The notes under the pieces: generated by a model | What the model was told of the DNA's origin: nothing | Database searches by the model: none | The model's input: only the letters and a program-made list of their open reading frames with translations | Position numbers and translations under genes: made by a program | NCBI GenBank assembly: GCA_963716175.1 | Contig: OY970296.1 | Coordinates: forward strand, 1,760,001 to 1,824,000 | Length of the DNA: 64,000 nucleotides | Origin: an uncultured Armatimonadetes bacterium | GTDB taxonomy: Bacteria; Armatimonadota; Hebobacteria; Hebobacterales; Hebobacteraceae | Direction: 5' to 3' | In this document: piece by piece, positions 14,619-49,146 of the stretch | Numbering within the stretch: the stretch's first letter is position 1 | Layout: each line of letters begins with the position of its first letter

Positions 14619-14694
14619 GGTGAACGTAGCTCAATGGTAGAGCGCCGGACTGTGGATCCGGTGGTTGGGGGTTCAAATCCCCTCGTTCACCCCA
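14619..14694 (+). tRNA. tRNA-His (GTG)
   Basis: G-1 plus GTGAACG...CGTTCAC-C-CCA, anticodon loop CTGTGGA. Confidence 0.95.
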
Positions 14695-15504
14695 TTCTCT
14701 TGGCCGGGATAGCCGGCCCGCTTGGGGCCCAGGTCGGGGGTAAAGGCTGGAGGCGGAGCCTGGGTGCGGTGGTTGGGGGTGGCTAAGCCCAACGGGCCGC
14801 CATGGCGGTCGCCGCTGCCCGGCGACCTAGCCATTCAAATCCCCTCGTTCACCCCATTCTCTTGGCCGGGATAGCCGGCCCGCTTGGGGCCCAGGTCGGG
14901 GGTAAAGGCTGGAGGCGGAGCCTGGGTGCGGTGGTTGGGGGTGGCTAAGCCCAACGGGCCGCCATGGCGGTCGCCGCTGCCCGGCGACCTAGCCATTCAA
15001 ATCCCCTCGTTCACCCCATTCTCCTGGCCGGGATAGCCGGCCCGCTTGGGGCCCAGGTCGGGGGTAAAGGCTGGAGGCGGAGCCTGGGTGCGGTGGTTGG
15101 GGGTGGCTAAGCCCAACGGGCCGCCATGGCGGTCGCCGCTGCCCGGCGACCTAGCCATTCAAATCCCCTCGTTCACCCCATTCTCCTGGCCGGGATAGCC
15201 GGCCCGCTTGGGGCCCAGGTCGGGGGTAAAGGCTGGAGGCGGAGCCTGGGTGCGGTGGTTGGGGGTGGCTAAGCCCAACGGGCCGCCATGGCGGTCGCCG
15301 CTGCCCGGCGACCTAGCCATTCAAATCCCCTCGTTCACCCCATTCTCTTGGCCGGGATAGCCGGCCCGCTTGGGGCCCAGGTCGGGGGTAAAGGCTGGAG
15401 GCGGAGCCTGGGTGCGGTGGTTGGGGGTGGCTAAGCCCGACGGGCCGCCATGGCGGTCGCCGCTGCCCGGCGACCTAGCCATTCAAATCCCCTCGTTCAC
15501 CCCA
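14695..15504 (+). repeat. Five tandem 162-bp tRNA-His-linked repeats
   Basis: Units end at 14856, 15018, 15180, 15342 and 15504, each with TTCAAATCCCCTCGTTCACCCCA; about two variable positions in total. Confidence 0.97.
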
Positions 15505-15519
15505 TTCCTTGTTGCTCCT

Positions 15520-22539: not shown

Positions 22540-22781
22540 TACGCAGCCACGGCAATGCGGAGATGGATGGGTTCCCCTGAAGCCTGTGGCAGTTCGGGGG
22601 GAAGCGGGTCCCCGTGCTCCAGACACGACTCAATCAGCTTCCTCGCGACGTCTTGAGCGATCTCCAGTGTTTCGGCCAGAGTTCGACCCTGTGCAACCAA
22701 TCCCTGGAGCACCGGACTGGTAGCCAAATACCCGCCCTCAGGTAGCTTCTCGACTACAATCTCCAGCAGATGCTCGGCCAT
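22539..22781 (-). CDS. hicB: Type II TA antitoxin, short HicB family
   Basis: EGGYLATSPVLQGLVAQGRTLAETLEIAQD. Confidence 0.88.
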   Translation of the reverse strand: MAEHLLEIVVEKLPEGGYLATSPVLQGLVAQGRTLAETLEIAQDVARKLIESCLEHGDPLPPELPQASGEPIHLRIAVAA

Positions 22782-22879
22782 AATCCTCTCCGCATCTGCA
22801 TTATAGCACAATCCGCGGGCCTGGCCCTCTTCGGGAGGCGGGTTCGCGTCCACTTGTGCTATAATGCCATCGGCAAGCT

Positions 22880-23205
22880 GTGATCGTGCTAGACGGGGAG
22901 CTAGCGGTGCCCTGCACCCGCAATCCGCTATAGCGGGGTCGAACTCCCGTCCGAGGGCGTGTCGTTTGGGGTCTGTGGGGGCGTAAGCGGTGTTGACGGT
23001 CGGGCCCTGCGCAGCGGGCGCTTTGCGAACCCCGTCAGGTCCGGAAGGAAGCAGCGGTAAGCAACGGGGCCTGTGTGCCGCAGACCGTCCGACCCGAGTG
23101 GCTAGGCCTGCCTATGGCAGGCCGCCACCCCGGCCCGAAAGGGCTTAGGGGCCGGCTGCGCTCATTCCGCCTGGGCGATCCGTTCGACGGCGGGTGCACG
23201 ATCAC
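22880..23205 (+). ncRNA. ffs: Signal recognition particle RNA, large (Alu-containing) type, with a 53-nt insertion
   Basis: TCAGGTCCGGAAGGAAGCAGC core; Alu-like GGGGAGCTAGCGGTGCCCTG...CAATCCGCT; termini GTGATCGTGC/GCACGATCAC pair; TGCTATAAT extended -10 upstream. Confidence 0.93.
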
Positions 23206-23206
23206 T

Positions 23207-23233
23207 TATGGGGCGGGGTCTAAGACCCCGCCC
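23207..23233. repeat. REP-like palindrome or terminator after the SRP RNA
   Basis: GGGCGGGGTCTAAGACCCCGCCC. Confidence 0.6.
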
Positions 23234-23399
23234 TTCTACTTCGCCCCAGCCCGTCTGCCTTCCCGAGACCCCAGAAGCCGGCCTAGACGGCGCAAATCGC
23301 GTTTCTGGCCAGGGCAGAGGTCAAGGCAGCGCCACGGGCGAAAAACCCGCAGGGCCTGCCATCAGTCTCGGGACCTAACGCCTTCCAGGAGAGACGACG

Positions 23400-31939: not shown

Positions 31940-32019
31940 GGGCAGGTCGCGTGGCTAGGCCCGCCTGCGGCGGGCCGTCACCCCGGCCGCTGTAAGCGGC
32001 CTAGGGGGACCTGCCCTAC
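31940..32019. repeat. REP carrying a 56-nt twin-hairpin module (31952-32007)
   Basis: Removing the module leaves GGGCAGGTCGCGGACCTGCCCTAC, the exact reverse complement of the REP at 47280-47303. Confidence 0.85.
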
Positions 32020-37708: not shown

Positions 37709-38764
37709 CTAGGCCAGTGTCTCCCCGTACGGCGCCCGCGCTACCCCGCGCTCTGTCACGATCCCGGCGATCAGCTCGGCAGGAGTGATGTCGAAGGCGG
37801 GGTTGAACACCTCCGCCCCTGCCGGCGCGACCGGCGTTCCGCCGAAGCCAAGCACCTCTTCGGCGCTGCGCTCCTCTATCGGTATCTGAGAGCCGTCGGC
37901 GAGAGAGGGGTCAAGGGTGGAGGTGGGCGCTGCCACGTAGAATGGAATCTGGTGGTGACGCGCCAGCACGGCGAGGCCGTAGGTGCCGATCTTGTTGGCC
38001 GTGTCGCCGTTGCGGGCGATGCGGTCGGCGCCGACGATGACGACATCCACCATGCCCCGCGCCATGCAGGCCCCGGCCATGCCATCGGTGATAAGGGTGG
38101 TCGGGACGCCGGCGCGCATCAGCTCCCACATGGTGAGCCGCGCGCCTTGCAGCAGCGGCCGCGTCTCGCAGGCCAACACCTTGACCGGGTTGCCGGCGGT
38201 CCCTAGGTCGCAGTGCGACCGGGATGGCGGCCCCTTGGGCCTAGCCACGTGGGCGGCCTTGATCACCGCCAGCGCGGTGCCTTCGCCTCCCGTGGCGAGC
38301 GCGCCGGTGTTGCAGATGGTCAGCACGCCTGCGCCGTGCGGGATAAGCGCGCGGCCGTGCTCGGCGATGAGCCGGCAGGTCTCAGTATCCTCCCGGTGGA
38401 TGGCGAGCGCCTCCTGAGCCAGCTCGTCGGCGGTGACACCGGCCGCGGCCCGGGATAGCATGCGGTCTATCGCCCAGAACAGGTTGCGCGCGGTGGGTCG
38501 GGTGGCGCGCAGCAGGGCGGCCGCCTCGGCGATCCGCTCCTGCATGCCCTGGGCTTCGCCCCGGGCGGCGAGGGCGAGGCCGTAGGCGGCGGCGATGCCG
38601 ATGAGAGGCGCGCCCCGCACCTGGAGGGTGCGAATCGCCTGGGCCACCTGCCCGACCTGCCGGCAGCGCAGGTATACCTCCTCCTGGGGCAGGCGGGTCT
38701 GATCCAGGATTACGACCGCATCCTCATCCCAGCGGATTGGGTCAATCTTGCCTACGGGCATCAA
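37709..38764 (-). CDS. mtnA: S-methyl-5-thioribose-1-phosphate isomerase with 16-aa insertion
   Basis: VRGAPLIG, RPTA, CNTGALAT, ETRPLLQGARLT, GADRIARNGDTANKIGT, NPAFDIT. Confidence 0.95.
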   Translation of the reverse strand: MMPVGKIDPIRWDEDAVVILDQTRLPQEEVYLRCRQVGQVAQAIRTLQVRGAPLIGIAAAYGLALAARGEAQGMQERIAEAAALLRATRPTARNLFWAIDRMLSRAAAGVTADELAQEALAIHREDTETCRLIAEHGRALIPHGAGVLTICNTGALATGGEGTALAVIKAAHVARPKGPPSRSHCDLGTAGNPVKVLACETRPLLQGARLTMWELMRAGVPTTLITDGMAGACMARGMVDVVIVGADRIARNGDTANKIGTYGLAVLARHHQIPFYVAAPTSTLDPSLADGSQIPIEERSAEEVLGFGGTPVAPAGAEVFNPAFDITPAELIAGIVTERGVARAPYGETLA

Positions 38765-47605: not shown

Positions 47606-47687
47606 GGGCAGGAGGCAAGTGGCTAAGCCCGCCTGGGGCGGGCCGCCACTCCGGTCGCCGGAGGCAACCTAGGGGCTCCTGCCCAAC
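47606..47687. repeat. REP carrying a 56-nt twin-hairpin module (47620-47675)
   Basis: GGGCAGGAGGCAAG[module]CTCCTGCCCAAC, the same flanks as 2987-3268. Confidence 0.85.
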
Positions 47688-49019: not shown

Positions 49020-49146
49020 GGCGGGCATAGGTCCCTAGGCCTGAAGGGCGGGATGTCCCTAGGCCCGGTAGGGCCGGGATGGCGGCCGGCTCTGCCAGCC
49101 TAGCCAGCGGTCGCCGAATGGCGGCCTAGCCACATGCCCGCCCTAC
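49020..49146. repeat. REP carrying two nested twin-hairpin modules
   Basis: Minus strand: outer module 49032-49132 contains inner module 49056-49106. Confidence 0.8.

Follow-up and report, generated by a model that had tools for sequence, protein, structure and literature searches.

A twin-hairpin repeat copy within the single SRP RNA gene of an uncultured Armatimonadota bacterium

The SRP RNA is essential and is among the most conserved of all RNAs. The stretch of DNA analyzed here (‘the window’: 64,000 nucleotides of contig OY970296.1, from an uncultured bacterium placed in the Hebobacteria) contains a gene for this RNA (ffs) that harbors an additional segment in its 3' strand (Table 1). 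The gene is recognized by the large bacterial SRP covariance model (RF01854, Bacteria_large_SRP) at positions 22884-23138, with a score of 140.8 bits against a gathering threshold of 60; relatives that do not carry the additional segment score between 161.7 and 205.6 bits. In the alignment to RF01854, the 3' part of the model has to be fitted to the insert, which yields many non-canonical pairs. A closing helix, in which positions 22880-22889 pair with 23197-23206, is kept in 30 relatives and sets the length of the gene at about 327 nucleotides. An initial, sequence-only reading of the region had given the gene a length of 326 nucleotides. The small bacterial SRP model (RF00169, Bacteria_small_SRP) is matched in the window over its entire length (model positions 1-97 of 97; score 73 bits, cut-off 40), and the conserved ‘4.5S-like’ core therefore stops one base 5' of the insert. 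Consensus scans for promoters and terminators around the gene identified no full sigma-70 promoter and did not call the hairpin that lies directly downstream.

Table 1. Positions in the window of the SRP RNA gene, its insert, flanking motifs and further copies of the repeat family
Feature	Positions	Strand	Basis or remark
Large (Bacillus-type) SRP RNA gene, ffs	about 22880-23206	+	about 327 nt including insert; ends taken from the closing helix
4.5S-like S-domain core (Ffh-binding helix 8 region, GGAA loop), intact	22998-23097	+	RF00169
Twin-hairpin element copy (putatively mobile), 53 nt	23099-23151 (equally 23098-23150)	+	53-column gap versus 30 relatives; repeat-family member
Hairpin 1: UGGC/GCCA at the base, 8-bp inner stem capped by a 3-nt loop; 5'-side UA bulge	23099-23127	+	MFE structures
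Hairpin 2: CCCC/GGGG at the base, inner stem capped by a GAAA loop; 3'-side UA bulge	23128-23151	+	MFE structures; basal stem covaries family-wide
Rest of helix 5 3' strand and Alu-domain closing strand	23152-23206	+	gapless alignment with relatives
TGcTATAAT, extended -10-like motif	22857-22865	+	about 15 nt upstream of ffs; by eye, weak
G+C-rich hairpin, terminator-like, without a strong T run	23210-23233	+	directly after ffs; sequence inspection
Five family copies in a tandem array of 162-bp units (one in every unit); each interrupts a fragment of the tRNA-His T arm where stem meets loop	14779-15480	+	
REP-like palindrome (GGGCAGGTC.../...GACCTGCCCTAC) with a family copy in its loop (positions of the copy)	31951-32006	+	nhmmer 38.8 bits
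Family copy in frame (48 nt, 16 codons) in the methylthioribose-1-phosphate isomerase (MtnA) gene (37709-38764, minus strand)	38200-38248	-	
REP-like palindrome (GGGCAGGAG.../...CTCCTGCCC) with a family copy in its loop (positions of the copy)	47619-47674	+	nhmmer 35.8 bits
Family copy nested between hairpins 1 and 2 of an outer copy	49056-49106	-	flanks ...GACCGC/copy/CATCCCG...

The drop in score (from roughly 200 to roughly 140 bits) and the shortening of the match at the insert (to 22884-23138, from a real extent of about 22880-23206) indicate that automated covariance-model annotation mis-calls SRP RNA genes of this kind. The same signature, consisting of matches of 253-254 nucleotides at 135-150 bits, is displayed by the SRP RNA genes of two further genomes that are considered below (G007 and G012). 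The earlier suggestion to look for a second copy of the gene returned none: RF01854 and RF00169 each match one locus genome-wide, and one gene for an SRP54 M-domain protein (ffh) is found in the genome. The RNA that contains the insert would presumably be the functional, mature form of the SRP RNA.

The sequence-only reading had singled out a 53-nucleotide segment, at positions 23099-23151, as a module placed inside the RNA, and had argued that its removal would restore collinearity with large bacterial SRP RNAs. Both points were borne out by a MAFFT alignment of ffs against the SRP RNAs of 30 relatives, in which one clean gap of 53 columns is found in all 30, within the 3' strand of helix 5 of the Bacillus-type RNA. 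The junction in the window reads CCCGA(G)-insert-(G)CCGGCTGC, and that of the relatives reads CCCGAGC(T/C)GGCTGC; the boundary of the insert is uncertain by one G only, and a target-site duplication is absent. Judged from these alignments, the segment is an insertion relative to its lineage. The wider survey encompassed 41 genomes (with G000 denoting that of the window), in 36 of which a covariance-model search for SRP RNA exceeded the cut-off, and the insert is missing from 33 of the 35 related genomes with such a hit (the 30 aligned by MAFFT, together with G015, G034 and G036). The opposite view, that the segment is not an insertion but either a normal helix of the lineage or an assembly chimera, has the clean fold of the segment in its favor and is next to impossible: a lineage-wide helix is ruled out by the 33 empty relatives and by about 100 other loci that match the segment, and a chimera is ruled out by its presence in contigs of two independent DNA runs from different studies and of one RNA run. 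Outside this assembly, the insert also recurs in the only SRP RNA hits of G007 and G012.

When folded alone, the insert is predicted to form two hairpins with an energy of -37.4 kcal/mol, and within a 71-nucleotide context its fold yields a z-score of -2.28 against shuffled sequences. The predicted energy of the full RNA is -170.8 kcal/mol and that of a variant from which the insert was deleted in silico is -133.5 kcal/mol, so that the difference (-37.3 kcal/mol) corresponds to the energy of the insert alone; all 89 of the pairs outside the insert are common to the two predicted folds, and the insert's own pairs have a mean predicted probability of 0.915. These models agree with the initial proposal that both arms would close on themselves and leave the rest of the RNA unbroken. 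For a relative whose site is empty, the point of insertion falls, in the Rfam alignment, on an unpaired GA that faces GUUGA in helix 5, immediately before a helix of three base pairs. Searching the insert against Rfam at lenient thresholds returned at best 17.6 bits (E 0.083), where the gathering score is 71, and a search against a plasmid collection returned no match.

The insert is one copy of a dispersed repeat. With an 81-nucleotide query centered on it, 40 other places were identified in the same 4.56-Mb genome, and an nhmmer profile built from the clear copies produced 181 matches that merge to 97 loci at E<=1e-3, with the SRP copy itself scoring 31.1 bits (E 9.4e-7) against this profile; a strict IUPAC pattern matches the genome 95 times, and a reversed-pattern control does not match it at all. 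The unit, 5'-TGGCTAGG...CCTAG(GGR/CCA)-3', measures 42-60 nucleotides and is organized as TGGC-TA-GGNC[loop]GNCC-GCCA followed by its inverted counterpart, which together constitute two bulged hairpins that share a common CTAG core. Hairpin 2 is thus hairpin 1 in inverted form, exactly so in a subtype that ends in GCCA. The two-hairpin fold is predicted for 68 of 79 unique copies, in which the basal stem of hairpin 2 appears as TCCC/GGGA (24 copies), TGGC/GCCA (22), CCCC/GGGG (20) and CGGC/GCCG (2); the prevalence of the fold, combined with the covarying basal stem, points to selection on the structure. Copies start with TGGCTAGG, and the twin hairpin itself has no GTAG head (such heads belong to the palindromes that host it). 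The length of the copy is divisible by three in 58 of 89 well-bounded cases. In the main text of open papers, neither this element nor any repeat element within a bacterial SRP RNA gene was found described, and the paper on the Hebobacteria makes no mention of repeats, palindromes or transposition; the family is apparently undescribed. Its roughly 100 copies (in proteins, in REP loops and in itself), together with occupation of the same ffs site in two other genera, extend what was found at this locus beyond the sequence-only reading.

The positions of the other copies are informative. About 20 of them lie exactly at ...GNCCGC/CAYSSSGG..., where hairpins 1 and 2 of an outer copy meet, and in these nested arrangements the consensus of the outer copy is restored, with no base gained or lost; such scar-free nesting fixes the mobile unit as T...A/G. 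Many others occupy the loops of GTAG-headed, REP-like palindromes, empty versions of which occur next to a RAYT-like gene. Empty GGGCAGGAGC-AA-GCTCCTGCC hairpins are likewise found beside filled ones. Within the window, a tandem array at positions 14672-15511 (162-bp units, 5.2 copies, 99% identical) begins in the T-loop of an intact tRNA-His gene (14620-14694). Each unit of the array contains a 3' fragment of tRNA-His (variable loop, T arm and 3' strand of the acceptor) as well as a twin hairpin at the junction of T-stem and T-loop, and the array could have arisen either through tandem duplication seeded at the element or through repeated integration.

Additional copies reside in protein-coding genes, in frame and free of stop codons. 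The copy in the MtnA gene corresponds to a 16-residue gap relative to PDB 1t9k, and its 16 codons are absent from all six orthologues in the family. Pfam domains run across the element in each of the four proteins tested, from at least 15 candidates (MtnA, ProRS, a XerC-like recombinase and a PFL-like enzyme), with the element lying in the sense orientation in MtnA and the recombinase and in the antisense orientation in the PFL-like enzyme and ProRS. In-frame composites of REP and twin-hairpin sequences were also noted, by eye only, in DnaE-like, MutL-like and MiaB/MtaB-like frames (G000:C1 3076172-3078150, 4499638 and 3974546). Among the other structured RNAs that the search covered (58 tRNAs, the tmRNA, the RNase P RNA and the LSU rRNA), no family copy was detected. 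The LSU rRNA match (G000:C1 4213687-4216796) spans 3110 nucleotides against a model of 2925 positions, and none of the approximately 185 extra nucleotides matches the twin-hairpin profile.

The earlier question of whether the RNA keeps the insert was addressed by comparing contigs of two DNA and two RNA metagenome runs over window positions 22780-23320. Contigs that include the insert are present in DNA runs X1 and X2, which come from different studies. An RNA-library contig from run X11 (129 nucleotides, depth 9) covers positions 23055-23183 without a gap, and therefore the entire insert with 44 and 32 nucleotides of flanking sequence, while a second RNA-library contig spans 23154-23233; the RNA-library contigs thus continue through and past position 23099. 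The depth of run X11 falls to zero outside 22875-23235 while the DNA runs continue beyond, which argues for an origin from RNA. Three substitutions distinguish the X11 contig, and because all of them lie within the insert, the contig may derive from a close relative. This single, low-depth contig supports retention of the insert in the SRP RNA, although neither processing nor the fraction of molecules that retain the insert is quantifiable from contigs. Insert-less joints were observed as well (23097 to 23151 in run X16; 23098 to 23154, with CT between, in runs X1 and X11). Splicing was rejected as their source: the joints carry the junction of the relatives along with many other differences, and they are read as the empty sites of relatives.

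A related alternative is that of an intervening sequence, which would be transcribed and then excised (for example by RNase III) without religation, leaving a mature SRP RNA composed of two base-paired pieces. The predicted hairpins of the insert, as long and perfect duplexes, resemble RNase III substrates, and partial processing would be compatible with the contig data; however, an RNA-library contig does extend across the whole insert into flanking sequence on both sides, and the copies in protein genes, being in frame and stop-free, are evidently kept there. As an account of the insert, an intervening sequence is considered very unlikely.

Occupation of the ffs site is patchy. The taxonomic family of G000 is represented by 15 genomes, 14 of which have an SRP RNA hit; the insert is present at the site in three of these 14, which belong to three genera (G000, together with G007 and G012, where a diverged copy occupies the identical position in the only SRP RNA hit), and is missing from the remaining 11. 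The nearest SRP RNA backbone to that of each carrier is in every case empty (G008 for G012, at 96.3% and within the same genus; G001 for G007, at 94.1%; G005 for G000, at 93.4%). Pairwise identities among the three inserts are 48/53 (G000 versus G007), 43/51 and 39/51. A comparison of backbone with insert identities, combined with a FastTree phylogeny of the ffs backbone, was not decisive with regard to history, and neither was the relationship of the G007 SRP copy to that of G000 (91%) versus its own paralogues (84-88%); the distribution reflects either one old insertion followed by several precise losses, or repeated hits on the same site. Of the 14 other genomes in the taxonomic family, 11 contain the repeat family as such; beyond them it was found in a single genome, which belongs to a different family of the class (86 matches), and in none of the 26 remaining genomes searched. 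When species-representative genomes were scanned, 57 of the 80 loci among the matches listed fell in nine MAG assemblies that bear the titles Ca. Hebobacteria, Armatimonadota or ‘Bacillota bacterium’, and the other 23 are single matches in unrelated taxa that probably represent chance.

Two further observations concern the surroundings of SRP RNA genes. Twin-hairpin copies lie just downstream of the gene in G001 (G001:C1:2469761-2469796) and G007 (G007:C191:1254-1282), probably in or near its terminator hairpin. In the order to which G000 belongs, a genome from a separate family (G015) has an unrelated insertion in the Alu domain of its SRP RNA, namely a hairpin of roughly 30 nucleotides between helices 3 and 4 (a hit of 294 nucleotides at 148 bits), and insertions into this RNA may accordingly be recurrent in the order.

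The occupied sites in three genera invite the proposal that the insert is a domesticated expansion segment, the hairpins of which (one capped by a GNRA-type GAAA loop) would serve the SRP, for example by contacting a protein or the ribosome or by forming a hinge between the S domain and the Alu domain. In accord with this proposal, the identical site is filled in three genomes that each carry a single ffs; a compensatory change of U-A to C-G separates hairpin 1 of G000 from that of G007; all three carriers retain the GAAA loop in hairpin 2; and the identity between the G000 and G007 inserts is near that of their backbones (92.3%). Against it stand the 11 empty genomes, which include the nearest backbone of each carrier, and the state of the G012 copy, which contains a mismatch and two deletions. 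Moreover, maintenance of the hairpins is general to all 97 copies, in any location, and the copies in proteins and REP loops occupy places where a role in the SRP is impossible. Domestication thus appears quite unlikely, and the insert is instead probably a tolerated passenger copy of a small, non-autonomous mobile DNA element. The filling of one site in three genera, and the GAAA loop found in all three, nonetheless count against this passenger interpretation, and would also fit selection for the insert.

Five Y1_Tnp/RAYT-like open reading frames (PF01797) are flanked by GTAG-type REPs in the genome (G000:C1 1199920, 3132162, 3625861, 962134 and 4050831; open frames of 177-198 residues). The REP-like palindromes near them comprise at least three families, of which two are GTAG-headed (GTAGGGCGGGCAT.. 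and GTAGGGCGGCCATGCG..) and one is of the form GGGCAGGAGC..GCTCCTGCC; palindromes of these three types are also the commonest landing sites of the twin hairpin. No twin hairpin was found within 1.5 kb of any of the five frames, and across the 41 genomes Y1_Tnp genes do not track with the element: two carriers (G001 and G009) have none, and many non-carriers have several. A Y1/RAYT enzyme as the driver of mobility is thus unsupported, both by the flanks of the five frames (300 nucleotides) and by phyletic co-occurrence in the 41 genomes. A scan for a parent insertion sequence, in the form of inverted single bulged hairpins 300-5000 bp apart, recovered three pairs, which are neighboring miniature copies only. 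When replichores were defined by GC skew, asymmetric copies showed no replication-strand bias (31 versus 23), and no fixed target tetranucleotide was found at the flanks of the copies, where the biases are limited to C at -4 (67/89), G at -1 (55/89) and C at +1 (59/89), in a set of copies that are not independent of one another. Collectively, the negative results for RAYT genes, strand bias, target and parent element weaken the case for an IS200/IS605-like mechanism, and none of the three approaches (Y1_Tnp frames, co-occurrence and parent-element scan) identified a mobilizing enzyme.

The landing sites themselves suggest how the element might move. Since they are loops and junctions of DNA palindromes, and since the insertions are scar-free, a single-strand, hairpin-directed mechanism at the level of DNA is favored. 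We infer that the element is mobile as DNA and that a trans-acting enzyme would recognize its bulged hairpins; a cut-and-paste reaction of the HUH/Y1 kind is a guess at its chemistry. Alternatively, the element could spread by way of RNA, entering transcripts by reverse splicing or retro-insertion with subsequent recombination. This would likewise explain both landing in the loops of structured RNAs and the absence of a target-site duplication, as the sites correspond to loops and junctions of ffs, of a tRNA fragment and of transcribed palindromes, and a similar idea is put forward (PMC2800124) for mitochondrial hairpin elements of Allomyces that also lack duplications. But copies are present in both orientations relative to their host genes, and most of them lie in REP loops, which hairpins in DNA explain equally well; a route through RNA is highly improbable.

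Assembled into one account, the passenger interpretation would proceed as follows. The element would enter single-stranded spots next to stems (hairpin loops, its own inter-hairpin junction, or the edge of the T-loop in a tRNA fragment) without generating a target-site duplication. In ffs its landing place would have been the 3' side of an asymmetric internal loop in helix 5, with the 4.5S-like core ending a single base upstream. Once transcribed within the SRP RNA, it would fold as two self-contained hairpins, such that the internal loop becomes a four-way junction and every SRP helix stays intact. With these helices intact, the particle would still work, and the insert could persist as a near-neutral passenger. 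A bolder extension of this account invokes a new class of mobile element, in which an enzyme outside the known Y1/RAYT groups would read bulged CTAG hairpins and paste them scar-free into loop/stem junctions, with the SRP copy kept across genera for its usefulness, as a four-way junction that has a GNRA cap and separates the S domain from the Alu domain; this we regard as unlikely.

The behavior of the element has clear precedents in kind. A close analogy is with the Rickettsia palindromic elements (RPEs), which are also short, non-coding palindromic repeats that are found in frame in conserved proteins and in the genes of structured RNAs. Delihas (2007; PMC2229807) describes RPEs, presumably tolerated, in the genes for tmRNA and RNase P M1 RNA, and for R. 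bellii another study (PMC1458961) gives 526 RPEs, of which 53 are in protein genes and one is in tmRNA. There are also differences: the host of RPEs is an obligate intracellular alpha-proteobacterium, whereas the twin hairpin is found in sediment and wetland MAGs, with multi-copy relatives that bear the titles Ca. Hebobacteria/Armatimonadota; the twin hairpin is much shorter (42-60 nucleotides), G+C-rich, and built of two side-by-side hairpins in place of one long stem; and it nests in itself and in REP loops, with SRP RNA as a new host gene. The likeness is therefore one of described behavior, as an analogy, rather than of membership. It would nevertheless extend gene-invading palindromes from Rickettsia to environmental, Armatimonadota-like bacteria, and to an additional host RNA.

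A second group for comparison consists of the hairpin and double-hairpin elements of mitochondria (those of Allomyces, the GC clusters of yeast, and their counterparts in sponges), which are hairpin repeats that similarly lack flanking duplications, but which belong to eukaryotic organelle genomes and are likened to the twin hairpin by description. The double-hairpin elements were reportedly first described by Paquin and colleagues in 2000. As described in PMC2800124, such elements are located in intergenic DNA, open reading frames and rRNA genes, generate no duplications, and stay in transcripts.

REP, BIME and REPIN sequences that are associated with RAYT genes resemble the twin hairpin in their architecture as an inverted-hairpin doublet and in their high copy number, and the genome does contain GTAG REPs and five RAYT-like genes. 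In contrast to them, the twin hairpin has no GTAG head, lies beside no RAYT-like gene, is situated within genes, and appears as a guest in REP loops. The IS200/IS605 family is characterized by terminal hairpins, the absence of a terminal duplication, and an affinity for single-stranded DNA. Miniatures derived from that family (PATEs) have these features, with hairpins at both ends, and in this they recall the twin hairpin; unlike PATEs, the twin hairpin displays only base biases where a conserved 5' target of 4-5 nucleotides would be expected, no strand bias, no cognate full-length element that bears TnpA and no correlation with Y1_Tnp. An element that is scar-free, self-nesting and hairpin-seeking, and that is accompanied by no identifiable transposase, thus provides a lead to a possibly new mechanism of insertion.

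With respect to extra structure within a stable RNA, the intervening sequences of rRNA genes likewise place additional hairpins inside the gene of a structural RNA. Such sequences are excised by RNase III, and the RNA is left fragmented; for the SRP insert, in contrast, an RNA contig spans it. A natural precedent for the tolerance of one or two extra stem-loops by SRP RNA itself is offered by basidiomycetes, in which stem-loop insertions are described in helix 8 (PMC4605306). Those insertions differ from the one described here in being eukaryotic, in lying in helix 8, in being phylum-wide, in co-evolving with Srp54, and in having no tie to a repeat family. A mobile repeat in the sole ffs of a bacterium would mark a place at which SRP RNA tolerates extra structure, namely the internal loop just outside of the 4.5S-like core.
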